Notes: generated from the letters alone by a model not told the origin. Positions 2,382-16,097 are shown, counted from the stretch's first letter. The stretch is 20,000 nt of DNA from an uncultured virus (IMG/VR IMGVR_UViG_3300017766_004071) (IMGVR_UViG_3300017766_004071:55705-75704), one strand, 5' to 3'. Numbers and translations: made by a program.

Positions 2382-2394
2382 ATAAGTTAAATCA

Positions 2395-2551: not shown

Positions 2552-2764
2552 ATGAACGCAAGAAAAGAAATACTTGGAAAAATAGAAGAGTTTGAAAAAC
2601 GTGTGAAGTATTGGAAAGATAGACAAATAAATTTTAAATGGACAGAAGAAACTATAAAAGAGGGTGACCCATTATTTGTAATGTGTCAAGATTTTGAACA
2701 TTCTTTTAAAGAAAAAATATTACTCTTGCAATGGGTATTAGATTTAATTAAAGATGAAAATTAA
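2552..2764 (+). CDS. Hypothetical protein (70 aa)
   Basis: ORF track. Confidence 0.7.
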   Translation: MNARKEILGKIEEFEKRVKYWKDRQINFKWTEETIKEGDPLFVMCQDFEHSFKEKILLLQWVLDLIKDEN

Positions 2765-2775
2765 AACAAACTAAT

Positions 2776-2952
2776 ATGATAAATAAAATTTCAGCACTTT
2801 TTGCACTTTTAATCGGTATAATGTATTTTTCTTTATTTGCATACGATATAGAATATGACCGAGATTTAATGACTTGGTTTTGGCTATTATTTTCCGAAAT
2901 TTGGTTTATGATTAGTTTACGTTTTTGGATTTTATATGATAAAAATAATTAA
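2776..2952 (+). CDS. Small membrane protein (58 aa)
   Basis: Read manually; two hydrophobic segments. Confidence 0.55.
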   Translation: MINKISALFALLIGIMYFSLFAYDIEYDRDLMTWFWLLFSEIWFMISLRFWILYDKNN

Positions 2953-2955
2953 AAA

Positions 2956-3105
2956 ATGTTAGTAATTATTGGTCTTTTATTTTTGATAATTGGAATCTTA
3001 TTCTTAATTTTGTCTTACAAAACAAAGAACTCAGACTTGTTTATAGTTGGAATTATATTTCTAATTGTTCTTTTGTTTGGATTTATATATGGTTTAATAA
3101 TATAG
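2956..3105 (+). CDS. Small membrane protein (49 aa)
   Basis: Read manually; MLVIIGLLFLIIGILFLILSYK..., two hydrophobic segments. Confidence 0.55.
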   Translation: MLVIIGLLFLIIGILFLILSYKTKNSDLFIVGIIFLIVLLFGFIYGLII

Positions 3106-3178
3106 AGTAGTAGCGCAATTGGTAGCGCACTCGGTTTGGGACCGAGAGATTTTGCAGGTTCGAGTCCTGTCTACTCTA
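3104..3178 (+). tRNA. trnP: tRNA-Pro(TGG)
   Basis: AGAGTAG/CTACTCT acceptor; CTCGG-TTTGGGA-CCGAG. Confidence 0.92.
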
Positions 3179-3186
3179 CAAGATTT

Positions 3187-3263
3187 AGGAAAGTATCCCC
3201 TCAGCCTTATACGCCGTAGAAAGGGTAACTGGTAACATATGGGTTCGAACCCCATCTTTCCTA
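3187..3263 (+). tRNA. Non-canonical tRNA-Ile(TAT)-like RNA without a normal D arm
   Basis: AGGAAAG/CTTTCCT acceptor, A73, normal T arm, 7-nt loop CTTATAC; D-loop-like AACTGGTA lies 3' of the anticodon arm. Confidence 0.65.
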
Positions 3264-3276
3264 CAAAATTATAATA

Positions 3277-3353
3277 CGGCAAGTATACCCTCCGTCTGAT
3301 ACACGGTAGAAAGGTTAATTGGTTACATATAGGTTCGATTCCTATCTTGCCGA
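3277..3353 (+). tRNA. Non-canonical tRNA-Ile(GAT)-like RNA without a normal D arm
   Basis: CGGCAAG/CTTGCCG acceptor, A73, CCGT-CTGATAC-ACGG; same architecture and length (77 nt) as 3187-3263. Confidence 0.65.
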
Positions 3354-3362
3354 CAACAATAA

Positions 3363-3436
3363 GTCTCAGTAACTCAGTGGTTTAGAGTTCTCGACTGTTA
3401 ATCGAGTGGTCGTAGGTTCGAATCCTACCTGGGACG
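3363..3436 (+). tRNA. trnN: tRNA-Asn(GTT)
   Basis: GTCTCAG/CTGGGAC acceptor, G73; CTCGA-CTGTTAA-TCGAG. Confidence 0.94.
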
Positions 3437-3452
3437 CAAATTTTAATAAATT

Positions 3453-3680
3453 ATGGTTAATGTAAAAATTGGTGAATTTAAGGTTGGTGATAAGTTGTTT
3501 ATTGATTATAGTGAAGATAATCCAAACAATAAACACATCGAAATTAGAGCAATTGTGGATATGGAGGTGGTGATTTATTTGGATGACAAAAATAACTACC
3601 ATATGGAACCAATTCATTACTTCAATGTGTTATGTAGATGTCACTCACTTAAAAAAATAACAAATGAAACGGACAATTAG
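3453..3680 (+). CDS. Hypothetical protein (75 aa)
   Basis: ORF track; FKVGDK SH3/KOW-like start. Confidence 0.7.
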   Translation: MVNVKIGEFKVGDKLFIDYSEDNPNNKHIEIRAIVDMEVVIYLDDKNNYHMEPIHYFNVLCRCHSLKKITNETDN

Positions 3681-3819
3681 AAAACCAAGTTCTGCAAAGT
3701 TTTATGAAATGCTTAGAAATAAGTACAACAACTACATTAAGAAACAAGAAAATGAAATGGAAGATTCTACAAATTAGATTCCAACCTAAAAAATTTAATT
3801 AACAATATATAATTTTCAT

Positions 3820-4329
3820 ATGAAAAAAGAGTTTTTATTTAATGATAACATTATTGATTTTGAATTTGACGAAGTAATAGATAAAAAAATAAATGTTAAG
3901 GTATTTCACTATTTCAATAATAATCTTTTATTTGAAAAAATTGATGATAGAATAATTTGTCTTAAAGGTATTGGTAAATTATTCTTTCAAGAAGGATTCC
4001 CAATTTCATTATCTATTTCAAAATTAAAAGAACAAGGGGTTGAGGTTAGTATATTACACGTTGCTGATGAATGTTTAAAAAATGGGTGGTCACCAATCAC
4101 AACATATAATAAATTAAAATCTGACTTTGAAGAAGATATTGACAAAGAAAATCATTATGATTTACATTTATTAAAAAAATTTTGTGAATCAAATTATGAA
4201 GACCAAAGAGAAATGATATTTGAATATCTGTTTAAATGCAAAACTGATGATGTTAGAAATAAAAAAAATGAAAATCCAATAAATTGGTTACAATCACTTG
4301 TAACTAGTGGGGCTAAAAATAAACTTTAA
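3820..4329 (+). CDS. Hypothetical protein with possible AlaRS helical-domain-like motif
   Basis: GKLFFQEGFPISLSISKLKEQGVEV resembles AlaRS FKLYDTYGFPxDLT...ERGxxVD. Confidence 0.55.
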   Translation: MKKEFLFNDNIIDFEFDEVIDKKINVKVFHYFNNNLLFEKIDDRIICLKGIGKLFFQEGFPISLSISKLKEQGVEVSILHVADECLKNGWSPITTYNKLKSDFEEDIDKENHYDLHLLKKFCESNYEDQREMIFEYLFKCKTDDVRNKKNENPINWLQSLVTSGAKNKL

Positions 4330-4338
4330 CAAGAAAAT

Positions 4339-4413
4339 GACCCTGTAGCTTAGCTGGTTTAAAGCACAATACTTTTAATATTGGGAGCGGGAGTTCGAAT
4401 CTCCCCAGGGTCA
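4339..4413 (+). tRNA. trnK: tRNA-Lys(TTT)
   Basis: GACCCTG/CAGGGTC acceptor; CAATA-CTTTTAA-TATTG. Confidence 0.94.
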
Positions 4414-4422
4414 CAACACAAT

Positions 4423-4507
4423 GTCCTTATGGTGTAATGGTTAAACATCCCACTCTTACAAAGTGGAGACGAGAAGTATAATCCTAGTTCGAATCTAGGT
4501 AAGGACA
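4423..4507 (+). tRNA. trnV: tRNA-Val(TAC) with 16-nt variable region
   Basis: GTCCTTA/TAAGGAC acceptor; CCACT-CTTACAA-AGTGG. Confidence 0.88.
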
Positions 4508-4535
4508 CATTAAATGATTTTTAAAATATAAAAAA

Positions 4536-4784
4536 ATGAAAAAAATATTATTTCTTGGTTTGATATCTGTATTATTCCTTAGTTGCAAAAGAGAAGCTAA
4601 AGAAGAAATAGAAACAGATAATACTAATTATAGTGTTGAACTTCTATTTGAAGTTGATGGATGTAAAGTCTATCGATTTTTGGATGGTGAATTCCATTAT
4701 TTCACAACTTGTAATGGTTCTGTAACTCATAAAAGTAATGAAAAAAACTCCAAAGATTTGGAAATACAAACCGTTGTGAAATAA
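4536..4784 (+). CDS. Lipoprotein, DUF4884-like
   Basis: Signal peptide with lipobox FLSC; VELLFEVDGCKVYRFxDG..HYFT motif. Confidence 0.7.
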   Translation: MKKILFLGLISVLFLSCKREAKEEIETDNTNYSVELLFEVDGCKVYRFLDGEFHYFTTCNGSVTHKSNEKNSKDLEIQTVVK

Positions 4785-4790
4785 AGATTT

Positions 4791-4852
4791 GAACAATTAA
4801 GGGACCGAGCCTGCCTACAATTTCGGTGTGAGGTGCTAGTAGGTAATTGTTC
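4791..4852 (+). ncRNA. Putative pseudoknotted small RNA
   Basis: GAACAATTA/TAATTGTTC closing stem; GCCTAC/GTAGGT hairpin whose loop TCGGT pairs with upstream ACCGA. Confidence 0.45.
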
Positions 4853-4856
4853 TTTA

Positions 4857-5011
4857 TGTTATAATAGTACCACGAGGCATCCCATAAGAACTGCTCACTG
4901 CTGTGGTCTTGTTGCTTGTAAACGAATAGCCCAAGGTATAAGTTAGGAAGCTTAACTCAACCTATCCCCCACTGACGAGTGGGGTGAAGTTGGGGGATTA
5001 AAAAAGAAACA
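4857..5011 (+). ncRNA. Putative structured RNA (~155 nt)
   Basis: GC-rich non-coding stretch with ACCACG/TGTGGT, CCCCAC/GTGGGG and ATCCCCC/GGGGGAT helices. Confidence 0.4.
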
Positions 5012-5015
5012 ATAG

Positions 5016-5101
5016 GGTCGGGTGGCCGAGTTGGTTAAGGCACTAGTCTGCAAAACTATCGAATGAAAAATTCATCGTGGGTTCAAATCCCTCCCCGACC
5101 T
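5016..5101 (+). tRNA. trnC: tRNA-Cys(GCA) with long variable arm
   Basis: GGTCGGG/CCCGACC acceptor, U73, loop CTGCAAA, variable hairpin ATGAA/TTCAT. Confidence 0.9.
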
Positions 5102-5164
5102 CAAAAAAAAAGTTCAGTTAGTTATTTTTACTCATTTTGTTGATATTTATATATATATATATAT

Positions 5165-5914
5165 ATGAAATGGAATGATAACGATATTGAAAAATTAATT
5201 GATTTGGTTAATCAAGGATTAAAACCAAATAGTATTGCTGAAATTTTTGGGGTTACGTATAAAACGATAACTAATAAAATGTTTAGATTGGGTTTACAAG
5301 TAGTTTATACAACAAATAAAACTTGTAAAAATTGTGGAAATACATTTGAGTCTTATTTAAGTAAAAACAAATTATTTTGTAATTCATCTTGTTCAACAAC
5401 GTTTAATAATAAAAAACGTAAACATAGTGAAGAAACTAAAAATAAAATATCAAAAACATTAAAAAGTAAACCAACTAAACCAACTAAGCCTACTAAACCT
5501 AAAGTTGGTAAAATAAAAACTTGTAGGATTTGTAATAATAAAGTTATTGAAAAGTACAAAATTGTTTGTACTAATTGTAGGTTAGAGTATTATCAATATT
5601 ATAGACCTTCTTGTACTTTTCAATTTAATGTAAAGGATTATCCACAAGAATTTGATTTAATTTTAATTGAACAATATGGATGGTATTCTCCAACAAATAA
5701 AAAAAATAATTTGGTTGGAGTCACAAAAGACCATAAATATTCAGTGATGGAAGGTTATAGAAATAAAATAGACCCTAATATTTTATCTCATCCAGCAAAT
5801 TGTGAATTACTTTTATTTTCGGATAATTCGTCTAAAAATGGTAAATCGTCTTTAACATTAACCGAATTGCTTGAAAATATTGAAATTTGGAATAAGAAAT
5901 ACGGAAATATTTAA
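5165..5914 (+). CDS. Putative homing endonuclease (HTH, Zn ribbons, NUMOD3-like, HNH-like C terminus)
   Basis: CxxC pairs, KHSEETKNKISKT, TKDH...HPANCELL..NSSK; free-standing between tRNAs. Confidence 0.7.
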   Translation: MKWNDNDIEKLIDLVNQGLKPNSIAEIFGVTYKTITNKMFRLGLQVVYTTNKTCKNCGNTFESYLSKNKLFCNSSCSTTFNNKKRKHSEETKNKISKTLKSKPTKPTKPTKPKVGKIKTCRICNNKVIEKYKIVCTNCRLEYYQYYRPSCTFQFNVKDYPQEFDLILIEQYGWYSPTNKKNNLVGVTKDHKYSVMEGYRNKIDPNILSHPANCELLLFSDNSSKNGKSSLTLTELLENIEIWNKKYGNI

Positions 5915-5942
5915 AAGTTATTATTATCTTTACAAAACATAT

Positions 5943-6017
5943 GGGAATGTAGCTCAATTGGATTAGAGTAGTGGATTCCAGACCCACAGGTTATAGGTTC
6001 GAGTCCTATCGTTCTCG
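5943..6017 (+). tRNA. trnW: tRNA-Trp(CCA)
   Basis: GGGAATG/CGTTCTC acceptor, G73; GTGGA-TTCCAGA-CCCAC. Confidence 0.9.
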
Positions 6018-6048
6018 CAAATTTTATCAACAATTTAAAATACTTATT

Positions 6049-6371: not shown

Positions 6372-7709
6372 ATGAAAATTTTCTATTCAATTTTACTAAT
6401 CTTTTTACCTTTTTTAATTTATTCCCAAGGTCTTATAATAAATGAAATATCAAATGGTGATTCTGGAAACAGAGAATATTTTGAGTTAGTTGTTATTGGC
6501 TCGACTTCAAACCCTACAATAAGTGTAGACTTGGGTGGATGGATAATAGATGATAATAATGGAGATTTTGAAGGTGTTTTAAGTGGGGTTGGTACAGCTC
6601 AAGGTCATATAAGAATTAAACCAGGATGTTTATCTAATGTAAAACCTGGGTCAATTATTTTAATTTATAATAGTGCTGATGTTAATCCCACTTTTGGGAT
6701 AACTCCAGACCCATTAGATTTTGATGGTGATTGTGTTTATATTTTACCAATAAGTGATTTGTGTTTGGATAATACATCAAATTTACCAACAACAACAAAT
6801 CCATTGTATACTCCAGTTAGTTATACCGCAACAAGAATTTGGGATAGGATTGGATTTAGAAATGATGGTGATGCCGCACAAGTTAGAAGTCCAAATGGTT
6901 TATTTTTTCACGGATTTTCATACGGGGATGTGTCAACCCCATTTCCCACTTTTCCATTTGGTGGTTCATCTTTTAATATTATAACAGGGAGTGGATTACA
7001 AAGAAATTATTTTTTCAATAGTGGTAGTTTTGGAGCAAAAGTCAATTTCAGTAGAGGTGTTGCCCCAACAAATGAAACTCCAGGTCAACCAAATAATGAT
7101 GCCAATAGATATTTTATAAATTCATTAAGAATTGGGACTTATAATTATTCAAACTTATTAGACCCAATTAATATTGGTTCATCAACAACATTGGTTGATT
7201 GTGGGACAATATTACCAATTGGTATAATTGAATTTAAGGGAACAAAAATTAACGATAATGTCAATCTTCAATGGACGCTTGATAATGTCACAGAAGTCAA
7301 TTATATTGAGTTGGAGAAGAGTTCAAATGGTTATGATTTCTATCCCATTTCTGAGATTTATCCTTATGATTTAACAATGAATTATATTGATGATTTGACT
7401 TACTCAGAAAATTATTATAGACTTAAAATTGTTGAATATAGTGGTGATATAACTTATAGTAATATTATTAATATCTCAAATAAAATTAACGATGATGTAT
7501 TAATATATCCCAATCCAACAAAAGATATATTGAATATAAAAACAATCAAAAATATTAATAGAATTTCACTATTTAATGAACTTGGGGTTGAATTTGTTAT
7601 TGAGAATCCGACATCTCAAATTGATTTATCCTCATTGTCAAAAGGAATTTATATAGTTAAGATTAATATTGATGAGAATACAATTATTAAAAAAATAATA
7701 TTAATTTAA
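6372..7709 (+). CDS. Secreted protein with lamin-tail-like N domain and T9SS type A C-terminal sorting domain
   Basis: Signal peptide; LIINEIS..EYFELVV..DLGGWIIDD; C-terminal IYPNPT..LNI..IDLSSLSKGIYIVKI..KKII. Confidence 0.85.
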   Translation: MKIFYSILLIFLPFLIYSQGLIINEISNGDSGNREYFELVVIGSTSNPTISVDLGGWIIDDNNGDFEGVLSGVGTAQGHIRIKPGCLSNVKPGSIILIYNSADVNPTFGITPDPLDFDGDCVYILPISDLCLDNTSNLPTTTNPLYTPVSYTATRIWDRIGFRNDGDAAQVRSPNGLFFHGFSYGDVSTPFPTFPFGGSSFNIITGSGLQRNYFFNSGSFGAKVNFSRGVAPTNETPGQPNNDANRYFINSLRIGTYNYSNLLDPINIGSSTTLVDCGTILPIGIIEFKGTKINDNVNLQWTLDNVTEVNYIELEKSSNGYDFYPISEIYPYDLTMNYIDDLTYSENYYRLKIVEYSGDITYSNIINISNKINDDVLIYPNPTKDILNIKTIKNINRISLFNELGVEFVIENPTSQIDLSSLSKGIYIVKINIDENTIIKKIILI

Positions 7710-8351
7710 ATGGCTTATATTGAAGGTAATTTTTTCCCCTTAAAGGTATATGTTCGAAATGAATATCTATATCAAAATAAGAAGGGATTTGGTGAATTTA
7801 CTGAGGGTGTTATAATATCAATTAGATGTTTACCAGGACAAGCGGCACTATTCCAAGTATTATTTAATAATGGTGTTATGAGAGATAAACTTCCATCTCA
7901 CGCATTATTAACTGAACCAAAATTACCTGATGTTGATTTACCATTCCATTATCTTCAAATATGGAATTGTTTTTCATATAATTTCTCGGTACATCATTTA
8001 AGTTATGTCTATGATACCAGAGTTTCAGTCTTTATGAAAGATAAGAAATGGTATGATGGAAGTTATTATGCCACAATAAATTGGGGTTCTAGTGATTTGA
8101 ATAGTGATTTTACCTTGGCTGAAGACCCAATGGAACATAAGTCACACCATATATTACTACTAGATAATGGCCAGATTGCCCTACAACCGAATAATAGGAT
8201 AAGATGGTCAGAACCATCCTTTGTCACAAAATCTTTCCCTGAGAGACCTGATTATTTGGTTAATAAGGATTATTATAATTGTGAGGGTTATGATAAGTGG
8301 GCGACCGAGGATTCTGAGTATATGTTTTATGATACAAATGAAAATAAATAA
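7710..8351 (+). CDS. Phage hypothetical protein (213 aa)
   Basis: Long ORF; HKSHHILLLDNGQIALQPNNR motif recalled from uncharacterised phage proteins. Confidence 0.8.
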   Translation: MAYIEGNFFPLKVYVRNEYLYQNKKGFGEFTEGVIISIRCLPGQAALFQVLFNNGVMRDKLPSHALLTEPKLPDVDLPFHYLQIWNCFSYNFSVHHLSYVYDTRVSVFMKDKKWYDGSYYATINWGSSDLNSDFTLAEDPMEHKSHHILLLDNGQIALQPNNRIRWSEPSFVTKSFPERPDYLVNKDYYNCEGYDKWATEDSEYMFYDTNENK

Positions 8352-8360
8352 TTTTTAAAT

Positions 8361-8876
8361 ATGACACCAATGGTAATTGTAAATTTCTATAAACCCTATG
8401 ATACAACTTGGGAACTACTCCAACTAATGGCATTGGATAAAATTGCCGAACACGAAAAGGAAACAAGTGAAGTTGAATTTGGAGATGTATCCGTTCAACA
8501 ACAATTTGATGATTATCGTGCAGCTTGTTTTCAAGGGTTAAAAACATTTATAATGCAAGTTTTAAATGAATGGGGAACTGAAAACATCTTGGTGTTTAAT
8601 GATAAATTCTATAAGAAATTTGAACATATGGAAATGGAGGGTAGATTAAAAACTTATACAACTCCCAATGTTTTCAAAACATCAAAAGAATTATTCAAAT
8701 GTTTAAAGAAAGAAAAGTTTCAGTTAGAACCAGATGATTTTGATTTCATTCACGAAACTTTTTCAAGTGCTGATGATGTTGTGTGTAATATATTCGCATT
8801 TGAATATGAATTAAAAGAAATTGATGATGATAAGGATTGGTTAGATGAGAACGGATTTGGTGATATTTTAGAATAA
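8361..8876 (+). CDS. Hypothetical acidic protein (171 aa)
   Basis: ORF track; tight gene packing. Confidence 0.8.
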   Translation: MTPMVIVNFYKPYDTTWELLQLMALDKIAEHEKETSEVEFGDVSVQQQFDDYRAACFQGLKTFIMQVLNEWGTENILVFNDKFYKKFEHMEMEGRLKTYTTPNVFKTSKELFKCLKKEKFQLEPDDFDFIHETFSSADDVVCNIFAFEYELKEIDDDKDWLDENGFGDILE

Positions 8877-8891
8877 AAAAAAGATAATAAT

Positions 8892-9104
8892 ATGAAAACA
8901 ATAGGCGTATTAGAAGCATTGAAAGATGAAACAATTAAAAAAGGAGATAAAATAATTATTGAACTTATTGTTGATGAAATAGATATTGAAAGTATGTACC
9001 CATTATCTGCATTTTGTTTTAATAAATATGATGAAATATCAAAAACTAATTATTTTAAATTGTCATGGAGTACTAAAATAAAAATAAAAGACAATAATAG
9101 TTAA
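8892..9104 (+). CDS. Hypothetical protein (70 aa)
   Basis: ORF track. Confidence 0.7.
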   Translation: MKTIGVLEALKDETIKKGDKIIIELIVDEIDIESMYPLSAFCFNKYDEISKTNYFKLSWSTKIKIKDNNS

Positions 9105-9177
9105 TTTTTTTTGTAACCAACTTGACCTTTTGTATTATATCGTTATATTTAATAAAAAAATAGTAAAAACTTCACAA

Positions 9178-9249
9178 ATGAAACACAATCTCTATATGGA
9201 CTTAACGACTGGAGCTGAGGGTAGAAATCCTCGGATGGAGATGGTATAA
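9178..9249 (+). CDS. Leader peptide 2 (23 aa, MKHNLYMDLTTGAEGRNPRMEMV), putative attenuator of tRNA block 2
   Basis: ATG 9178, TAA 9247-9249, terminator follows; codons 5-16 all match block 2 tRNAs. Confidence 0.8.
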   Translation: MKHNLYMDLTTGAEGRNPRMEMV

Positions 9250-9276
9250 TATAAGGTTTTAATTGTTAATAAAATC

Positions 9277-9313
9277 AAATCCATCTTCCTAAAAAAAAGA
9301 TGGATTTTTTTTT
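9277..9313 (+). terminator. Intrinsic terminator (attenuator 2)
   Basis: AAATCCATCTT (9277-9287) / AAGATGGATTT (9297-9307) with T tract; GGAGATGG at 9237-9244 is an alternative partner. Confidence 0.85.
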
Positions 9314-9322
9314 GTCACAGAG

Positions 9323-9353
9323 TTTGGGAATTAGAAATGGTTTTGTAACTTTG
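9323..9353 (+). promoter_or_regulatory. Bacteroidota primary-sigma promoter
   Basis: TTTG 9323-9326, TAACTTTG 9346-9353; ATG follows 4 nt later (near-leaderless). Confidence 0.7.
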
Positions 9354-9357
9354 TGGT

Positions 9358-9837
9358 ATGAGAAAACAAACACCATACATATCCTCTTCGGTCGCCATAA
9401 AAGGGATTAATGATTCAGGACTTGCAAAGTCTGAAACAAACGATTGTGTAGTTAGAGCTTTTGCTTCAGCTTTCAACGTGACTTATGATTTTGCTCACAA
9501 AAAGGTTGCTGAAATATTTGGAAGAAAAAACGGACAAGGAACTTATTGTTTTAGTTTGGTGATGAGGTCTTTGGAAAGTAAAGGAATTAGTGTTAATAGA
9601 AAAAAAATTAAAACAATAAGTAAAGATGTGAACCTTTCTTATTGGATTAAGGTTAAAGGTGTAAACACTTTGAGAAGTATGACAACTGCAAAGTTTTTGG
9701 AGGATTATCCCAAAGGAACTTACATAGTCACAGTCAAAGGTCACGCTTTTACAATTAAAGATGGGGTGGTGATTGGAAATCCTGATGATGCAACAAAGAG
9801 AAAAAAAACTATCTATGGAGCTTGGAAAATTGGATAA
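9358..9837 (+). CDS. Phage protein with possible papain-like Cys-His dyad
   Basis: NDCVVRAFA ... GTYIVTVKGHAFTIKDG motifs. Confidence 0.65.
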   Translation: MRKQTPYISSSVAIKGINDSGLAKSETNDCVVRAFASAFNVTYDFAHKKVAEIFGRKNGQGTYCFSLVMRSLESKGISVNRKKIKTISKDVNLSYWIKVKGVNTLRSMTTAKFLEDYPKGTYIVTVKGHAFTIKDGVVIGNPDDATKRKKTIYGAWKIG

Positions 9838-9886: not shown

Positions 9887-9960
9887 GGGCTATTGGTGTA
9901 GTGGTCGAACATGCCACCCTGTCACGGTGGAGAACAGGGGTTCAAATCCCCTATAGCTCG
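9887..9960 (+). tRNA. trnD: tRNA-Asp(GTC)
   Basis: GGGCTAT/ATAGCTC acceptor, G73; CCACC-CTGTCAC-GGTGG. Confidence 0.94.
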
Positions 9961-9973
9961 CAATACTTTAATT

Positions 9974-10063
9974 AATCGGTTGGTGTAAGTGGAAATGAAT
10001 ACCACCTTGGGTAGCAACCTATTTTTAGAATGGGGGATGTAGGTTCGAATCCTACACTGGTTA
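9974..10063 (+). ncRNA. tRNA-like RNA with expanded anticodon region
   Basis: AATCGGT/ACTGGTT acceptor, perfect T arm GTAGG-TTCGAAT-CCTAC, inserted TGGGT-AGCA-ACCTA hairpin. Confidence 0.6.
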
Positions 10064-10079
10064 AAAAAAGTTTTAAAAG

Positions 10080-10110
10080 TTGGAACTAAATGATATGAAG
10101 GTTGGTTTAT
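10080..10110 (+). promoter_or_regulatory. ECF-sigma-like promoter, copy 3
   Basis: GGAACT 10082-10087, N17, GTTTAT. Confidence 0.6.
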
Positions 10111-10136
10111 AATAATGTAACTTAAAAAAATAGATT

Positions 10137-10283
10137 ATGACAAACTTTATGATAAATTTTATTATTCTTGCTATTTTTATAATGCTTTTGGGTTTTATTG
10201 GTAACTATATCATAAAAAAATATCCAGATTCTTGGGTAGCAAAATGGTGGGATGATATGACTGATATTGGTCATTGGTGGTAA
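10137..10283 (+). CDS. Small membrane protein (48 aa)
   Basis: Read manually; one TM segment then a Trp-rich tail. Confidence 0.55.
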   Translation: MTNFMINFIILAIFIMLLGFIGNYIIKKYPDSWVAKWWDDMTDIGHWW

Positions 10284-10292
10284 ATTAAAATA

Positions 10293-10462
10293 ATATCTAT
10301 GTCACGAGATTAAGATGTGACTTACGTTCTAAGGAGTTTACTTATTGTCAATTAGGGCGGACGAAGGCAACATAAGTTATATTATGGTGACTTGATATTC
10401 ACCATAACGAATACAAGATATCAAAAAGAGAAGTGGAGAATCACTTATTCAAAACTTCTCTT
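10293..10462 (+). ncRNA. Putative multi-hairpin RNA
   Basis: ATATCT/AGATAT closing; GTCAC/GTGAC, ACTTAT/ATAAGT, TTATGGTGA/TCACCATAA, then AAGAGAAGT/ACTTCTCTT. Confidence 0.45.
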
Positions 10463-10469
10463 AATTTTT

Positions 10470-10553
10470 GCCTAGGTGGTGTAATGGTAGCCACGCAAGA
10501 CTTAAAATCTTGTGACCAGTAAGGTCGTGCGGGTTCGAGTCCCGCCCTGGGTA
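10470..10553 (+). tRNA. trnL: tRNA-Leu(TAA)
   Basis: GCCTAGG/CCTGGGT acceptor; CAAGA-CTTAAAA-TCTTG; long variable arm. Confidence 0.94.
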
Positions 10554-10569
10554 CAAAAAAATAAAAAAC

Positions 10570-10758
10570 ATGATATATTTTAAAATTTACTTTACACTAC
10601 TTCTTATCACAATCATAGTTGCTGGAGTTACTGGGTCGCTTATGAATAGCGATACTAAAAGAAGTGATTTATGGTTCAAGATTTCAAACACTTGTTGGAT
10701 AGCAACATTAGTTATGGTTATTGCAGGCGTATTAACTTCTGTATGGATTCTACATTAG
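10570..10758 (+). CDS. Small membrane protein (62 aa)
   Basis: Two hydrophobic segments. Confidence 0.7.
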   Translation: MIYFKIYFTLLLITIIVAGVTGSLMNSDTKRSDLWFKISNTCWIATLVMVIAGVLTSVWILH

Positions 10759-10795
10759 AATCTTGTCGGGACTACAAAAAAAAGTTTAAAAAAGA

Positions 10796-10827
10796 TTTGG
10801 AATTAAGAAAATCAAATCGTAATTTTG
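10796..10827 (+). promoter_or_regulatory. Bacteroidota primary-sigma promoter
   Basis: TTTG 10796-10799, TAATTTTG 10820-10827; directly upstream of scaffold E; near-identical to 1990-2021. Confidence 0.75.
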
Positions 10828-10836
10828 TGAGACAAT

Positions 10837-10929
10837 AGTCTTGTGGCGGAATGGAAGACGCTCGCTTCAAGGTGCGGTTAGTCAACGAAATGTAAAGCTA
10901 ACGTACAGGTTCGAATCCTGTCAGGACTA
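10837..10929 (+). ncRNA. Leu-type tRNA scaffold, copy E (93 nt; degenerate Leu-CAA-like arm)
   Basis: AGTCTTG/CAGGACT acceptor; TCGC-TTCAAGGT-GCGG 8-nt loop; enlarged variable arm. Confidence 0.7.
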
Positions 10930-10933
10930 CAAA

Positions 10934-11037
10934 TGTGTTGTTCCTTTGAGAAAGGAAATATAAAGATGAGTGACATTACTTGAATTATGGAATAGTAACA
11001 TAATCGTACACTACAACACAGAGGATTTCTCATCCTC
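10934..11037 (+). ncRNA. Putative pseudoknotted RNA
   Basis: TGTGTTGT/ACAACACA closing stem; H-type knot TTACT/AGTAA + ATTATG/CATAAT; 3' hairpin GAGGAT/ATCCTC. Confidence 0.5.
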
Positions 11038-11051
11038 AAATTTTTAAAAAC

Positions 11052-11124
11052 GCACCATTCGACAAGGGGTCTAAGTCACCTCCCTTTCACGGAGGAGTCA
11101 CGGGTTCGAATCCCGTATGGTGTA
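11052..11124 (+). tRNA. trnE: tRNA-Glu(TTC)
   Basis: GCACCAT/ATGGTGT acceptor; CCTCC-CTTTCAC-GGAGG. Confidence 0.94.
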
Positions 11125-11176
11125 CAAATCTCAGAAGTAATTAATCTGGGGCTGAGAGGTTCGAAACTCACGGAAA

Positions 11177-11276
11177 TGATTATGGTGTAGGCGCACGGAA
11201 AGATAAAGTATGAGAATGGTAAGTACCCATTAAAGAAATTGACATCAGGATTAAGGTTCGAATTCTTATTAATCAA
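11177..11276 (+). ncRNA. Degenerate tRNA-like RNA with expanded core
   Basis: TGATTA/TAATCA acceptor, TAAGG-TTCGAAT-TCTTA T arm, ACA 3' end; no anticodon arm. Confidence 0.45.
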
Positions 11277-11285
11277 CAAACATTA

Positions 11286-11326
11286 TGTGTATAGGATTTT
11301 TGGGTTGTGTATAGGATTTTCGGGTT
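11286..11326 (+). repeat. Tandem 20-bp duplication upstream of HNH gene
   Basis: TGTGTATAGGATTTT(T/C)GGGT x2. Confidence 0.8.
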
Positions 11327-11346
11327 TTTTGTGATATTTATATAAT

Positions 11347-11928
11347 ATGGAAGAATTAAATAGACATCAAAAAGCTGCATTGGTAAGTGGTATTAAGCGT
11401 AGACAGAAATCACTACAAGAATACTACGAAAATCCTAATATTTGTAGGTGTTGCAATAAACCAATTATGGTTGGTGAAAAACAAAAAGTTCGTGAGGTTA
11501 GAAGAAAAGTTTTTTGTGACCATAGTTGTTCTGCAACTTTTAATAATCAACAAAGAGAAATTAAAGAACCGATTAAAAAAAATAAAGAACCAAGACCTAA
11601 AAAGGAAAATAAAGAATCTAAACCTAAAAAGGAAAAATTTGAATTTATTTTAGGTTTAACTAAAAAAGATTTGTTTGAAAAACACGAAATTTATTATAGA
11701 TTTAGAGCAGTAATTAGGAAACATGCACATTATATTTTCAACAAACATCATAAAGACCAAAAATGTAAGGTTTGTGGATATAATACTCACGTAGAAGTTT
11801 GTCATATAAAATCAGTTTCATCTTTCAGTGATGATACTCTAATAATTGAGATAAATTCTATAGATAATTTAGTTGGGTTATGCCCTAATCATCATTGGGA
11901 ATTTGACAATGGTAAAATAAAATTATAA
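11347..11928 (+). CDS. HNH endonuclease
   Basis: CKVCG..VEVCHIK..NLVGLCPNHHWEFD; N-terminal Zn ribbon. Confidence 0.85.
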   Translation: MEELNRHQKAALVSGIKRRQKSLQEYYENPNICRCCNKPIMVGEKQKVREVRRKVFCDHSCSATFNNQQREIKEPIKKNKEPRPKKENKESKPKKEKFEFILGLTKKDLFEKHEIYYRFRAVIRKHAHYIFNKHHKDQKCKVCGYNTHVEVCHIKSVSSFSDDTLIIEINSIDNLVGLCPNHHWEFDNGKIKL

Positions 11929-11935
11929 CACATCA

Positions 11936-12021
11936 CGCAAGGTGGACGAGTGGTCAATGTCAGGGGTCTCATAAGCCTCTTCTGCGAAAGTGGAACTTCG
12001 GTTCGAATCCGAACTTTGCGT
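11936..12021 (+). tRNA. trnM: tRNA-CAT (probably Met) with long variable arm
   Basis: CGCAAGG/CTTTGCG acceptor; GGGGT-CTCATAA-GCCTC; TTCTGC-GAAA-GTGGAA arm; U73. Confidence 0.82.
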
Positions 12022-12034
12022 CAAATTATTAAAA

Positions 12035-12120
12035 GGGTGTCTATCCAAATTGGTGAAGGAAGCTGTCTGTAAAACAGTTGCTATATGCTAAACTTGGGGG
12101 TTCGAATCCCTCGGCACCCA
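12035..12120 (+). tRNA. trnY: tRNA-Tyr(GTA)
   Basis: GGGTGTC/GGCACCC acceptor; GCTGT-CTGTAAA-ACAGT. Confidence 0.9.
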
Positions 12121-12124
12121 CAAA

Positions 12125-12328
12125 AGAAATGAAACCTTACATAGGATGGATTAGCACCATTGAAAGGGAACTTGGCTCTCATAGGGTCGCAACCTAAATC
12201 GAGAGTAATAATGACCCAAGTTGCTATGTAGGAGACCCTGCTCTACCGTGCACGGTATCAGGTGATGGGGAACAAACCATCATTAAACGTCTTGCCCATA
12301 TAATGCTTATGGAAGGACTTTCATTTCT
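12125..12328 (+). ncRNA. Putative large structured RNA (204 nt)
   Basis: AGAAATGAAA/TTTCATTTCT closing; nested CTTACATAG/CTATGTAGG, AACTTGG/CCAAGTT, CTCTC/GAGAG; fills the Tyr-Gly gap exactly. Confidence 0.6.
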
Positions 12329-12333
12329 AATTT

Positions 12334-12408
12334 GCAGTAATAGCTCAATGGTAGAGTTCTTGTCTTCCAAACAAGATGTTGCGAGTTCGAGTCTCGCTTA
12401 CTGCTCCA
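12334..12408 (+). tRNA. trnG: tRNA-Gly(TCC), CCA encoded
   Basis: GCAGTAA/TTACTGC acceptor, U73; CTTGT-CTTCCAA-ACAAG. Confidence 0.94.
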
Positions 12409-12424
12409 AATTTAAAAATTCATT

Positions 12425-12637
12425 ATGAATCAGTCCGAATTTAGAAATCTTAGAACTGGGGATAAAATCCATATTAAGTCTCGTGATGGTTTATATACCT
12501 TCTTAAAAAAAGACTTTAGAACTGGTGAAATTCATATAACCTGTAAAATATGGCAATATGAAGAAAATCCGATAAGAGTAACAAGTTTTGATGATTTCAA
12601 ATGTTTGGCTGGTGGTTTATGGAGAAAAATTATGTAA
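12425..12637 (+). CDS. Hypothetical protein (70 aa)
   Basis: ORF track. Confidence 0.7.
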   Translation: MNQSEFRNLRTGDKIHIKSRDGLYTFLKKDFRTGEIHITCKIWQYEENPIRVTSFDDFKCLAGGLWRKIM

Positions 12638-12710
12638 TAGGAGAAAGTAAGTCGGTTGGTGTATAGCTTCCTTACGTCTAAAATTTAAGCACGATTACAT
12701 AATACAAAAA

Positions 12711-12784
12711 GGGGGATTAGCTCAGCTGGCTAGAGCACTTGATTTGCATTCAAGAGGTCATCGGTTCGACTCCGATATCCTCCA
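12711..12784 (+). tRNA. trnA: tRNA-Ala(TGC)
   Basis: GGGGGAT/ATCCTCC acceptor with G3:U70; CTTGA-TTTGCAT-TCAAG. Confidence 0.95.
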
Positions 12785-12816
12785 CTGAAAAATAAACATT
12801 GTTTTAAATTTAATTT

Positions 12817-13422
12817 ATGAAAAAATTTTTAGTATTTTTAGTGTTAGTAGTATTATTGACATCTTGGTCATATACACCCCCACGTAGGGTATTATTTATC
12901 GGTGATAGTTTAACCTGTGCAACTGGTGGGTGGCAAGACCAAGTTTCCAAACATTTTGGATATCAAAGGGTCAATTTATCTAAAGGTGGTGTTAGAACGG
13001 ATTATATGAGGACAACCCTAAATGCTTGTTTTAAAAACGATTCAGCTTTTTCAAGTGTTTTTATCTATGGTGGATGTAATGATGCTTTCTCTTATGTAAA
13101 TCTCCAAGGTGCGGTTAATAACATTCAAATGATGGTTGATAGTTGTAATAGAAGAGGAATTGAACCAATTGTGATTGTGGGTTTTAATCCAGCTCAAGTA
13201 ACAACAAAGACTGTGTATGATGCAGAAACAACCAAGAGATGTGTTGGAAGATACATTGAGTTTCAAAAGTTGATGGTTCACGAGAAAACTGGTTTAAAAA
13301 ATTGTAAGATAATTCCAATGGACACTACAATGTTTTATAGTGATACTGGAGATGGAATTCATTTTGCTGCGAGTGGTCATAGAAAATTTGCTAATTGGGT
13401 TATAAATCATATGGAAAAATGA
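12817..13422 (+). CDS. Secreted SGNH/GDSL hydrolase
   Basis: Signal peptide; FIGDSLT, KGG, GCND, DGIH blocks. Confidence 0.9.
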   Translation: MKKFLVFLVLVVLLTSWSYTPPRRVLFIGDSLTCATGGWQDQVSKHFGYQRVNLSKGGVRTDYMRTTLNACFKNDSAFSSVFIYGGCNDAFSYVNLQGAVNNIQMMVDSCNRRGIEPIVIVGFNPAQVTTKTVYDAETTKRCVGRYIEFQKLMVHEKTGLKNCKIIPMDTTMFYSDTGDGIHFAASGHRKFANWVINHMEK

Positions 13423-13670
13423 AAAAAATATTTTGGTTTTCAATTTTAATCACTATCTTTGTATCCTGTAACAAACACCCCACGATAGAACCTGGTGATA
13501 TTGTTAAGAAGTGTGTAATTGATACGATGTATATTACAGAATCTCCATCCACAATTGAATTTGGTAAGAGATATAATTATAAAACCGATTGTGATGAATT
13601 GATAATGACAAGAAGAAGTGATGTGTATGAAATAGGGGATACAATAACCTACGTTTATAAAAGAAGATAA
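13419..13670 (+). CDS. Small lipoprotein (83 aa)
   Basis: Start at ATG 13419 (ATGA overlap with the upstream stop); lipobox FVSC. Confidence 0.7.
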   Translation: MKKIFWFSILITIFVSCNKHPTIEPGDIVKKCVIDTMYITESPSTIEFGKRYNYKTDCDELIMTRRSDVYEIGDTITYVYKRR

Positions 13671-13676
13671 TTATTT

Positions 13677-13762
13677 GCCGTTTTCGCATAGTGGTTGATT
13701 GCACTGGATTTGTAACCCAGTTCCGTTAGGACACGTCAGTTCGAATCTGACAAACGGCTCCA
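13677..13762 (+). tRNA. trnT: tRNA-Thr(TGT) with variable arm, CCA encoded
   Basis: GCCGTTT/AAACGGC acceptor; CTGGA-TTTGTAA-CCCAG; TCC-GTTA-GGA arm. Confidence 0.9.
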
Positions 13763-13767
13763 AAAAT

Positions 13768-13977
13768 CCCAATTGATGTAGATAGATTGGGTGGTCAGTA
13801 AGCCTAATTGCTCGTATTATGGTTAATATGTCACTATAACCAGGGTTGCCAAGACCAGATTGTTGGCAGTTTACACGAGATAGTCACTCGCATTTTCTAC
13901 AAAAGGCAAAAAACACTAGTCCGTTTCTACAGGATGATGGGGCATTGAAAAAGTGTAGCTAACTTGGAAGATACCCC
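13768..13977 (+). ncRNA. Putative structured RNA (~210 nt)
   Basis: CCCAAT/ATTGGG, CTCGT/ACGAG enclosing TGGTTA/TAACCA and TGCCAA/TTGGCA, terminal GGGG/CCCC. Confidence 0.45.
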
Positions 13978-14067
13978 AAAATTTTTTAAAAAAAACATAG
14001 GAAAAAGTGAATAATTCAGGAAGAACAACTATCTTTGTCTTATTAATCACTGAAACACATAATCACA

Positions 14068-14298
14068 ATGGCTAAAGAGAAAAAAACAATCCAAGTTGAG
14101 TTATTAAAAGAATTCGCAAACAACTATTTGGCTATTCCAATGGTTTCTATCCAAGAAAAAATGGGCATTATCACAATGATTGAAAAGGTTCTACACGAAT
14201 CTAATGCCTATAAAGGTTATATGTATTTAAAACTTGAAGAAAACAATACCCCCCCAGCATTTGGTAGTGAGGGGTGGGCAACAAGAAAATATTTTTAA
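14068..14298 (+). CDS. Hypothetical protein (76 aa)
   Basis: ORF track; TATCTTTG -7-like element at 14030-14037. Confidence 0.75.
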   Translation: MAKEKKTIQVELLKEFANNYLAIPMVSIQEKMGIITMIEKVLHESNAYKGYMYLKLEENNTPPAFGSEGWATRKYF

Positions 14299-14316
14299 TT
14301 TAAAACTTTGAATATT

Positions 14317-14580
14317 ATGGCACTTATTTATGTAATCTTGGATAGCAACGATAGAATTCCTATTCTAACTGCAAGTAGTATTGAAAAAGCTGAATTACTT
14401 TTGAATCAATATATGGGTGTTGAAGGTCCTATATTTGATGAAAGTGTTGAGTATATAGGTTTTGAACCATTTGATGACAGAGGTTATTATGAAATTTATG
14501 AAGGTGAATACAAATATAAGACAGAAGATGGTGAACAAAGATTCATAAGATATTGTATGTCATTAGATAGTTTATATTAA
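14317..14580 (+). CDS. Hypothetical acidic protein
   Basis: ORF track; ATG 14317 preferred over TTG 14308. Confidence 0.7.
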   Translation: MALIYVILDSNDRIPILTASSIEKAELLLNQYMGVEGPIFDESVEYIGFEPFDDRGYYEIYEGEYKYKTEDGEQRFIRYCMSLDSLY

Positions 14581-14585
14581 AATTT

Positions 14586-14731
14586 AGTCCTGTGGCGGAA
14601 TGGAAGACGTTTGGGTGCAAATCCCATTAGCCCAAAGGGGGTTACAATATATTGAGGTTCGATTCCTCTACTGGTACGGATGTGTCAGATTGGCGTTGTT
14701 GTAAATACAGGTTCGATTCCTGTCAGGACTA
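14586..14731 (+). ncRNA. Leu-type tRNA scaffold with insert, copy F (146 nt)
   Basis: AGTCCTG/CAGGACT acceptor; insert contains two extra T-arm-like hairpins. Confidence 0.75.
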
Positions 14732-14737
14732 CAACAT

Positions 14738-14825
14738 TTAAAACATCAACTCGTAAAGAAAATGATGGCAAAGAGGTTCAGATAAAGGTAACGAGCTCCT
14801 ACCTACCCTGAACAAGATGTTTTAA
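14738..14825 (+). ncRNA. Putative pseudoknotted RNA
   Basis: TTAAAACATC/GATGTTTTAA closing; GTTCAG/CTGAAC + AGGTA/TACCT hairpin with loop ACGAG pairing to CTCGT. Confidence 0.5.
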
Positions 14826-14832
14826 TTAATAT

Positions 14833-14946
14833 GGTCAAGTGGCGGAATGGAAGACGCTAAGTAAGATGGTGTACGTTTGTCCCATAAGAAAGACCGATGC
14901 AACAGAAATGTGAAGGGTCGTATAGGTTCAAATCCTATCTTGACTA
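14833..14946 (+). ncRNA. Leu-type tRNA scaffold with insert, copy G (114 nt)
   Basis: GGTCAAG/CTTGACT acceptor, GGCGGAATGGAAGACGC D arm, T arm; no 7-nt anticodon loop. Confidence 0.72.
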
Positions 14947-14949
14947 CAA

Positions 14950-15153
14950 TGAGTAAGAGATACTCAGCAGTCTTAGTAAAGACTTAAATCTATACTCGGT
15001 TCTAAAGGGGACATCGTGAACGCCCCTTTCATGGGAATAAAGGCAGGTAGCAGAGCCTCCCAGTAGCTTGACTAATTTTAAGAGGGATGACCCACAGGTT
15101 TATTGAAAGCAAGAAAACCGATATATCTACTCACTTGGAATCTCAGAGTGGGG
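14950..15153 (+). ncRNA. Putative structured RNA (~200 nt)
   Basis: TGAGTA can pair with TACTCA at 14961 or 15128; AGTCTT/AAGACT and AAAGGGG/CCCCTTT hairpins. Confidence 0.45.
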
Positions 15154-15159
15154 AAATTT

Positions 15160-15247
15160 GCACCCATAGCTCAACTGGACAGAGCAACCGCCTTCTAAGC
15201 GGAAGGGTACCGAAAGGTCATTGTAGGTTCGAGTCCTACTGGGTGTA
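15160..15247 (+). tRNA. trnR: tRNA-Arg(TCT) with long variable arm
   Basis: GCACCCA/TGGGTGT acceptor; CCGC-CTTCTAA-GCGG; ACC-GAAA-GGT in a 19-nt variable region. Confidence 0.9.
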
Positions 15248-15313
15248 CTAAATTTTAATAGTAGCTATTGGTTTGAATTATTGATTTGTTTATATTTATA
15301 GTAAAATACTATT

Positions 15314-15919
15314 ATGGAACAAAACAAATTCAATAAAGAAGATTTAGAAAACTTAATTCACACACAAAATAAGAGTTATCGTGAAATTGGTAAATTGTAC
15401 GGAGTTAGTGACACTTATATCAAAAAAATAGCAAGAAAACTTGGTATAGAGTTATTGGTTAGAAAAGTGTTTCCTAAAGATTTTACCCCAATAAATAAAG
15501 GTACTTGTGAAATACTTACTTGTAAAAATTGTCTAGCTACTTTTCAAAAAAAATATGGTAATCCGAAATTTTGTTGTCATAGTTGTAGTATTGATTATAG
15601 ACAAAAAAATAAATACAATCATTATTTATTCAACCAACAAGAATTTACTAATTGTATTTCAGATATGAAATGGTTTAAGAAATATATTCTTGAAGAACAA
15701 AATGAAAAATGTAATATTTGTAATATTGATAATTTTTGGAATGGTAAACCATTGAAGTTCATTTTAGACCATATTGATGGAAATGCCGCTAACAATACAA
15801 GAAATAATTTAAGACTGATTTGTCATAATTGTGATTCCCAATTGGACACTTACAAATCAAAAAATAAAAATTCGGCTAGAAAAAATAGGTATTTTTTAAA
15901 CTATAAAAACAAATTATAA
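15314..15919 (+). CDS. HNH endonuclease with N-terminal HTH
   Basis: CNICN..LDHIDGNAANN..NLRLICHNCDSQ. Confidence 0.9.
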   Translation: MEQNKFNKEDLENLIHTQNKSYREIGKLYGVSDTYIKKIARKLGIELLVRKVFPKDFTPINKGTCEILTCKNCLATFQKKYGNPKFCCHSCSIDYRQKNKYNHYLFNQQEFTNCISDMKWFKKYILEEQNEKCNICNIDNFWNGKPLKFILDHIDGNAANNTRNNLRLICHNCDSQLDTYKSKNKNSARKNRYFLNYKNKL

Positions 15920-15923
15920 AATT

Positions 15924-16097
15924 ATGAAATTTAAAGTAGGAGACAAAGTTTACAAACCGAAAGGTTACAAATTCCCAGGTATAGTTGTTGCGGTATTCCA
16001 AACCACATCTGGTGAAACGAGAATTGTTGCAGAATTAATTGATAATGGTATGTTACACATATTTAGTGAGAGTCAGCTTGAACTTGATATAAACTAA
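15924..16097 (+). CDS. SH3-fold protein, distant DfrB (R67 DHFR)-like (57 aa)
   Basis: Read manually: MKFKVGDKVYKPKGYKFPGIVVAVFQTTSGETRIVAELIDNGMLHIFSESQLELDIN. Confidence 0.6.
   Translation: MKFKVGDKVYKPKGYKFPGIVVAVFQTTSGETRIVAELIDNGMLHIFSESQLELDIN

Follow-up and report, generated by a model that had tools for sequence, protein, structure and literature searches.

Leader-peptide attenuators control the amino-acid operons of enterobacteria, among them the trp, his, leu and pheA leaders and the multivalent leaders of ilvGMEDA and thr. Like the element described here, they combine a short open reading frame (ORF), an intrinsic terminator and a segment close to the ORF that is able to pair with the 5′ arm of the terminator; their stop codon is placed for masking, and their codons name the class of product encoded downstream. 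The present element, leader 2, was found in 20,000 nucleotides (nt) from an uncultured virus (IMG/VR IMGVR_UViG_3300017766_004071). This whole stretch, called the window below, covers bases 55705-75704 of a 75.7-kb IMG/VR record rated 27% complete, has a G+C content of 31%, and is numbered from its own first base. Leader 2 (ORF 9178-9249, terminator 9277-9313) precedes the second of two blocks of tRNA genes, and its codons list the amino acids of that block. This design suggests a trp-operon-style switch, which would raise tRNA production when ribosomes read the codons of the block slowly. That leader 2 and its terminator form a ribosome-read transcription attenuator gauging the decoding of block 2 codons is, in our judgement, evenly balanced between right and wrong; the match between leader and block, on the other hand, is beyond chance.

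The tRNA content of the window defines the sets used in the analysis. ARAGORN called 24 tRNA genes, compared with 22 that reached the gathering score of Rfam; every one of them is on the + strand, as are the leaders, terminators and promoters discussed below. They form block 1 (242-6018) and block 2 (9887-16591), between which lie four protein genes and the leader 2/terminator element. Block 2 consists of ten solid tRNAs (Asp-GTC, Leu-TAA, Glu-TTC, Met-CAT, Tyr-GTA, Gly-TCC, Ala-TGC, Thr-TGT, Arg-TCT and Leu-TAG) and four tRNA-like genes, with ORFs interspersed. All ten solid tRNAs were called by ARAGORN and nine of them by Rfam at gathering score, Met being called by ARAGORN only. The block-2 set, B2 (D, L, E, M, Y, G, A, T, R), rests on these ten and leaves out the tRNA-like genes, namely 9973-10064 (Gln-TTG according to ARAGORN, with a poor anticodon stem and a score below the Rfam gathering score) and three members of a Leu-like family, 10837-10930, 14586-14731 and 14833-14946. 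Block 1 holds Gln, Phe, His, Arg-ACG, Ser-GCT, Pro, Ile-TAT, Ile-GAT, Asn, Lys, Val, Cys and Trp, which gives the set B1 (Q, F, H, R, S, P, I, N, K, V, C, W). Ile was counted in B1 because two tandem genes without D arm, 3187-3263 and 3277-3353, carry Ile anticodon loops, CUUAUAC (UAU) and CUGAUAC (GAU) respectively, and because relatives have a canonical Ile-GAT. These two genes, located between Pro and Asn, have 4 nt in place of the D arm and an 18-nt extra arm each; they score 31.1 and 28.6 bits with Rfam and are missed by ARAGORN. They are probably unusual Ile tRNAs, and at their place relatives carry canonical Ile-GAT together with a CAT tRNA.

The leader 2 ORF starts with ATG at 9178, has 23 codons and ends with TAA at 9247-9249, giving the peptide MKHNLYMDLTTGAEGRNPRMEMV. 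Its codons 5 to 16 (9190-9225; CTC TAT ATG GAC TTA ACG ACT GGA GCT GAG GGT AGA) encode LYMDLTTGAEGR, a run composed solely of the nine B2 amino acids, all nine being present. The run also contains TTA and CTC, one for each Leu box, and AGA for the Arg-TCT box. The initial annotation had described this correspondence between codons 5-16 and block 2, and the ARAGORN and Rfam calls bear it out. It had added the caveat that CTC, ACT, GCT and GGT need extended wobble, rightly so: ordinary wobble reads 8 of the 12 sensor codons, and these four require four-way reading by U34. Such reading is plausible, since the phage has one U34 tRNA per four-codon box. Upstream of the ORF, a promoter-like site, TTGACC-N16-TATATT (9122-9149), agrees with the consensus at 10 of 12 positions. 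The surrounding stretch (TTTGTAAC..CTTGAC..TTATATTTAATAAAAAA) is kept even in the divergent lineage L137/L150 (contigs are named by our own labels). The site would act as the promoter of leader 2, and a transcript started there would have an A-rich 5′ untranslated region of about 20 nt. The motif GTTATAT, which the two leader sites have in common, is frequent genome-wide.

The strength of the match was evaluated by collecting every maximal run of codons made of set members only, in six frames. Among the 151,404 codon positions of the 75.7-kb record, the leader 2 run is the only one that covers 9/9 of B2, the runner-up covering 8/9. The background was 895 kb of DNA from related phages lacking arrays, or 1.79 million codon positions; 17 runs in it reached 8/9 of B2 and 17 reached 11/12 of B1, and none had 9/9 of B2 or 12/12 of B1. 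Near the start of the window, ahead of block 1, stands a second ORF of the same kind, leader 1 (55-150; MRTSINHISNSVQPQFKNCWSADSYGSGGIS), whose codons 4-21 encode block-1 amino acids only. Its run, SINHISNSVQPQFKNCWS, covers 11/12 of B1 and is one of the two best B1 runs in its own record. The two runs are disjoint and jointly comprise all 20 amino acids, like the two blocks. When the alphabet was partitioned at random into 9 and 12 letters 200,000 times with the peptides kept fixed, 8 partitions fitted leader 2, 113 fitted leader 1 and 2 fitted both. Adding Gln to B2 or dropping Arg left the leader 2 result unchanged; the leader 1 result depends on the presence of Ile in B1. We conclude that the match of leader 2 with block 2 is beyond chance and that a chance account is untenable.

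Relatives were then informative on what is conserved in leader 2. Its homologues are confined to the clade with tRNA arrays, and were found in 15 viral contigs and 9 metagenome contigs. Three of the 18 viral contigs retrieved by the 17-mer search (L092, L097 and L098) were chance matches in unrelated frames and were dropped. All eight peptide variants keep the ATG, the 23 codons and the position of the stop, which is TAA in some and TGA in others. The variation clusters in codons 10-13, outside all predicted helices, where TTGA, TAGT, TTRA, TIAT and TITT are found, Ile (ATA) being the only residue from outside B2. In the divergent lineage L137/L150/L152, the most instructive one, a near-identical promoter region, the 23-codon ORF, the hairpin and the terminator are kept, and the peptide is MKNYLYTGETLRAEDLNLRNGRV. 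Its excerpt YLYTGETLRAEDL differs from the window and is made of block-2 residues only. Codons 4-16 of this lineage encode only B2 residues and cover 8/9 of them (Met is lacking), with TTA, CTT and AGA present. At 8 of 13 positions the residue differs from that of the window, and all 8 replacements fall in B2 (p = 0.0026, using proteome frequencies). Block 2 of L150 (Asp, Tyr, Glu, Met, Ala, Thr, Arg-TCT, Gly and Leu-TAG) serves the same nine amino acids. In this 20-kb locus the B2 runs are headed by that of leader 2 and the B1 runs by that of leader 1 (12/12, Arg-ACG being represented by CGC). The composition of leader 2 is thus conserved and its sequence is not. Turnover of sequence at constant composition is predicted by a panel of codons, and not by a functional peptide or by a purely structural RNA.

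Leader 1 evolves in a similar fashion. In its eight peptide variants, 34 of the 35 residue states at codons 2-21 belong to B1, the sole other state being the Thr3 of the window type, and among the roughly 15 derived states B1 accounts for at least 14 (p = 0.002). Past codons 21-27, about half of the residues of the tails belong to B2. Variants d and f reach 12/12 coverage, with CGC for Arg-ACG, and the Ile codons of the leader have counterparts in the tRNA-like anticodon loops CUUAUAC and CUGAUAC. A hairpin is also formed by the invariant core CCGCAATTT...AATTGTTGG; its loop contains the single codon that varies, and its G-U pair becomes A-U or G-C in two variants. The sole indel within leader 1 is of 6 nt. 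This indel, together with the invariant start of leader 2 and its fixed stop switching between TAA and TGA, may be taken as signs of translation. A possible co-change was seen in L008, where leader 2 has gained an ATA codon and leader 1 has ATC in place of the ATA of the window. This contig carries in block 2 a CAT tRNA of the type found beside Ile-GAT in block 1 of L014/L015, which from its position would be an Ile decoder. This single instance is suggestive.

The leader 2 terminator (9277-9313) has an 11-bp stem (9277-9287/9297-9307), a 9-nt loop and a tract of nine T, with a stability of -11.1 kcal/mol. Together with the leader 1 terminator (179-212, 30 nt before tRNA-Gln), it makes up the only strong + strand terminators of the window. 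In the alignment of relatives, 107 of its 108 cells are paired, with one compensatory change from U-A to C-G. A hairpin internal to the ORF, CUGAGGGU-AGAA-AUCCUCGG (9215-9234, -7.1 kcal/mol), possibly a pause hairpin, is paired in 80/80 cells and has changed once in a compensatory manner, from G-C to A-U in L150. Taken together, these two structures have 187/188 cells paired and two compensatory pairs, which is matched by 4 of 500 shuffles. The leader 2 segment has a fold z-score of -3.1, and the element is 89-90% identical between lineages whose flanking ORFs share 68-84% identity.

Three regions could form alternative structures. Region 1, AUCUCUAU (9188-9195), pairs with 9235-9242 in the minimum-free-energy fold. 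Region 2 (9235-9244, ending 3 nt before the stop codon) contains the putative antiterminator 5′ arm, GGAGAUGG (9237-9244). Region 3, CCATCTTC (9281-9288), comprises part of the terminator 5′ arm and the first base of the loop. As previously noted, GGAGATGG (9237-9244) and CCATCTTC (9281-9288) form 8 pairs, and the arm begins 11 nt after codon 16; one of the pairs is G-U, and the duplex has a stability of -11.2 kcal/mol. This pairing is kept in 74/80 cells, with one G-C to A-U change in L126 at the terminator loop base 9288, and L150 has it in a shifted register. For leader 1, 77/77 terminator cells and 52/56 antiterminator cells are paired. A reading of 9237-9288 as a mini-tRNA was rejected: the segment is 52 nt long, has neither T arm nor anticodon arm, and gives no tRNA match.

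Folding with the ribosome-covered region masked, a check suggested by the initial annotation, was carried out on the transcript up to just before the terminator 3′ arm, keeping unpaired a footprint of assumed size, from -15 to +12 around the A-site. In the window, regions 2 and 3 were paired with the A-site at codons 2-17 and unpaired from codon 18 on; in L150, they were paired at codons 2-16 and unpaired from codon 17 on. The pure B2 run ends at codon 16 in both, which coincides with the last modelled ribosome position at which the antiterminator arm is free. The check thus speaks in favour of the attenuator as far as this coincidence goes, in both window and L150, with the reservation that the footprint is assumed. 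With the same footprint, a ribosome terminating at the stop codon masks the antiterminator arm and one stalled on the control codons does not, as in an attenuator. Without any ribosome, the truncated leader 2 transcript prefers the 2:3 pairing (leader 1 prefers 1:2). Read-through would then be the default state of leader 2, with termination brought about by a ribosome that gets to the stop codon.

The following scheme would account for these features. A transcript started at the TTGACC/TATATT site, or running through from the preceding genes, would be translated over the 23 codons. A ribosome moving smoothly to the stop codon (9247-9249) would cover region 2 (9235-9244), so that the terminator (9277-9313) would form and the transcript would end. 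A ribosome waiting at one of codons 5-16 for a tRNA of the block 2 type would leave region 2 free to pair with 9281-9288, and RNA polymerase would continue into block 2, read-through then supplementing the output of the promoters that block 2 has of its own. A panel with one or two codons per amino acid would act as a gauge of the whole tRNA set, and the products of block 2 would exert a negative feedback on the switch. Leader 1 would do likewise for block 1. We infer translation of the frame, the choice of the antiterminator, the direction of the regulation and its trigger, for instance cleavage or depletion of host tRNAs.

Several observations weigh against this scheme, which is weakest at the antiterminator and at the promoter downstream. 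The antiterminator does not exceed chance: after dinucleotide shuffling, the leader 2 ORF pairs with the terminator arm as well or better in 402 of 2000 cases, and for leader 1 the figure is 427 of 2000. Its single compensatory change is matched by 62 of 500 shuffles, and the competing 1:2 helix (9188-9195/9235-9242), paired in 74/80 cells, shows zero covariation. As to the promoter, a Bacteroidota-type -33/-7 sequence, TTTG-N19-TAACTTTG, lies at 9323-9353, downstream of the terminator, in an interval where an attenuator would have none. The initial annotation had pointed to it as a separate promoter, and it is real, belonging to a family, TTTG-N17-21-TAnnTTTG, that has 8 matches for 1.63 expected, a number reached by 0 of 200 shuffles. 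The site between terminator and block 2 is conserved in all lineages inspected: in the window, in L014/L015, where tRNA-Asp follows it directly, and in L150 (10069-10100, 33 nt before tRNA-Asp). Further members stand inside the blocks, at 727, 1990, 2982 and 10796. Given these promoters between terminator and block and within the blocks, the leader can at most add to block expression and cannot be its sole gate; on this sequence evidence, the tRNA blocks do not require read-through. Ahead of block 1, no -33/-7 match was found between 212 and 242. The interval 213-241 (GTGTTCTTTGACATCGTTGGTAAAATATAA), from the leader 1 terminator to tRNA-Gln, is nearly invariant in all leader-1 lineages and matched none of the promoter patterns tested. 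Members of the family, TTTGGAAATTAGAAA..TCGTAATTTTG, are located at 727-758, 1990-2021, 2982-3012, 9323-9353 and 10796-10827 of the window and at about 467-497 of the record (G000), several of them some 10 nt before a tRNA 5′ end. One directly precedes a lone tRNA at the record start.

The panel itself raises further objections. Each amino acid occurs once or twice in leader 2, the sole tandem being Thr-Thr at codons 10-11, and the sensitivity of the sensor is doubtful because it has single codons and not runs as in classical leaders. Codons 2-4 (K, H, N) are block-1 residues which would also trigger the modelled switch, and none of the phage tRNAs matches the three TCN Ser codons of leader 1. 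Block 1 contains a disrupted Leu-like gene (1593-1716), at a position where L118 holds a Leu-TAA called by ARAGORN. In the relatives, the leader panel does not follow gains and losses of tRNA genes: leader 2 of L126 (TITT) lacks an Ala codon, block 2 of L016 and L099 is without Gly and Ala tRNAs, and block 1 of L150 has only Gln, Pro, a CAT tRNA, Cys and Trp for a leader 1 that lists 12 amino acids. The high identity at synonymous sites of leader 2 equally fits a pure RNA element. Finally, the RNA data come from Logan contigs of one freshwater metatranscriptome, in which 9% of the sampled words are present, as the contig 9073-9243 and seven other pieces at depth 3-16; DNA carry-over is possible in these data, and uncovered parts carry no meaning. 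The contig 9073-9243, the sole one over leader 2, begins upstream of the proposed promoter and is uninformative on transcript ends or translation. Of the attenuator as initially proposed, the set match, its recurrence in the divergent lineage and the covariation of the terminator thus stand, while an antiterminator at chance level and a promoter downstream of the terminator count against it.

Among other explanations, the one that survives best is a self-contained unit made of a promoter, a structured non-coding RNA of about 155 nt and a terminator, in which the frame would be untranslated and its likeness to the tRNA set coincidental. The element does have its own promoter-like site and terminator, covariation in the internal hairpin and the fold z-score of -3.1, and its nucleotide identity, 89-99%, exceeds that of the flanking ORFs. 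A separate promoter serving block 2 and the chance level of the antiterminator are also as expected for such an RNA. Coincidence, however, would have had to strike twice in one genome (p ~1e-5), and again after the sequence turnover seen in L150; ORF length, start and stop are kept in 8/8 variants, and no Rfam family was recognised, the best match (25.8 bits for a gathering score of 50) being on the terminator only. We consider this explanation unlikely.

Still less probable, in our opinion, is that the translated frame reports on block-2 decoding with an output other than attenuation, be it RNA stability, processing, access of Rho, or the peptide as a product. A strong rule of composition next to a weak alternative helix, and the shifted register of the antiterminator in L150, are what such an output would leave. 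It does not account for a strong, conserved intrinsic terminator at a fixed distance after both leaders, nor for a pure run ending at the modelled region 2 boundary in two lineages, and a peptide product is difficult to reconcile with a peptide sequence that is not conserved. Lastly, that the 9277-9313 hairpin merely ends an upstream unit (genes 6372-9104), the small frame being incidental in its 3′ untranslated region, is very improbable: it is the first strong + strand terminator after these genes, an RNA-library contig runs from inside the upstream ORF (9073) to 9243, and a promoter restarts transcription right after the hairpin, but the same set-match statistics stand against it as against a non-coding RNA, conservation of the segment is higher than that of the genes whose unit it would end, and the same design of ORF and terminator precedes block 1.

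The attenuator reading has also to be placed in the context of the surrounding genes. A 159-amino-acid ORF (9358-9837, + strand) without Pfam family match lies between leader 2 and block 2; it is missing in L014/L015, where tRNA-Asp is found some 30-40 nt after the terminator. Upstream, the ORF 6372-7709 encodes a lamin-tail-like domain and a C-terminal type-IX secretion sorting domain (Por_Secre_tail, E = 7.5e-13). Because of this domain and of the -33/-7 promoter family, the host is probably a member of the Bacteroidota. DNA searches of phage collections for cultured relatives gave matches to tRNA genes only, and a search with a neighbouring 213-amino-acid protein gave only distant homologues from cyanophages and pelagiphages (less than 60% identity). 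The 70 loci carrying relatives of this protein (L019-L088) have neither tRNA arrays nor leaders, and served only as background.

The tRNA genes themselves show some peculiarities. Paired extra arms are normally a property of Leu, Ser and Tyr tRNAs. In the window, Val (4423-4508), Cys (5016-5102), Met (11936-12022), Thr (13677-13762) and Arg-TCT (15160-15248), all 86-89 nt long, have a paired extra arm. The Leu-like family (1593-1716, 10837-10930, 14586-14731 and 14833-14946, and 506-583 in the record) has a common acceptor stem, AGUCYUG, with a Leu-type D arm and a T arm; its anticodon regions are odd or interrupted, with an 8-nt loop containing CAAG, a 58-nt insert, or a second, internal T arm. 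ORFs resembling HNH-type endonucleases are interspersed among the tRNA genes (5165-5914, 11347-11928 and 15314-15919; HNH_2 E = 8.6e-9, weak HNH_3), and in relatives both the spacing and the content of tRNA genes form a mosaic.

Two further loci are of interest. Just upstream of the window (about 54245-55337 of the record; 8081-9541 in L119), a 486-amino-acid protein with DUF2828 and DUF7788 domains (E = 6e-38 and 6.5e-50) is followed by a predicted RNA of about 190 nt (55345-55530 of the record; 9545-9735 in L119). In this RNA a long stem joins the two ends and encloses a branched core, of which the T-loop-like GGTTCAAACC is a part; with a z-score of -4.5, its fold is equalled by 0 of 200 shuffles, and no Rfam match was found at E <= 1. 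We take the protein and the RNA to be reminiscent of a Ro/Y-RNA pair. Beyond block 2, the adjacent ORFs 17109-17531 and 17534-18115 encode cREC_REC, a cyclic-phosphate-processing receiver (E = 2e-23), and a weak HD domain. By their domains, these two ORFs may represent RNA-repair-type equipment beside the tRNA arrays, which together with the DUF2828/DUF7788 gene would place RNA-conflict genes in the neighbourhood.

Both the reason for the presence of tRNA genes in phages and the way in which phages control them are open questions. Recent reports link phage tRNAs to escape from tRNA-cleaving host defences (for example PMC10264068 and PMC11555353). It is conceivable, though we hold this more general proposal to be somewhat improbable, that large phages run a tRNA homeostat, with a codon-panel leader before each block that probes, by single codons, how well the tRNAs of precisely that block can be decoded with, its terminator being opened by shortage of any one of them and closed by the products of the block. 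Its triggers could be, for example, host anticodon nucleases or a phage-induced decay of host tRNAs. The passages returned by a full-text literature search contained no published leader-peptide control of tRNA genes. No Rfam amino-acid operon leader (His, Trp, Thr, Leu and others) matched in the window or in 9100-9360, no T-box reached its gathering score in the window or E <= 1 in 9100-9360, and the only Rfam match in the surroundings of leader 1 was a weak rnk_leader on its terminator (21.5 bits for a gathering score of 50).

Compared with the described attenuators, leader 2 has four of their features, namely the ORF, the related codons, the terminator and the placement of the stop, with a possible alternative pairing as a fifth, and lacks two, the codon runs and a terminator-to-gene interval free of promoters. 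Enterobacterial leaders regulate biosynthetic enzymes and contain runs of 1-3 kinds of amino acids, whereas leader 2 precedes tRNA genes, in a phage, and the present leaders list 9 (or 12) kinds, each once or twice; also unlike in enterobacteria, a promoter follows the leader 2 terminator. The E. coli pheST operon with its pheM leader resembles the proposed switch in that a gene of the translation apparatus is under leader-peptide attenuation, and differs in its synthetase target, its run of Phe codons, and the absence of a multi-amino-acid panel and of tRNA genes. In T-boxes, too, the alternative of terminator or antiterminator ties the expression of translation-related genes to the status of tRNA, but uncharged tRNA is bound directly and an ORF is not required. 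If the proposed scheme is true, a translated sensor listing the tRNAs of its own block would provide the arrays with a demand-driven, self-limiting control. If general, a rule by which each panel names its block could serve to predict which tRNA genes of uncultured phages belong together functionally, and leader-peptide attenuation, known for amino-acid supply, would be extended to the supply of tRNAs.

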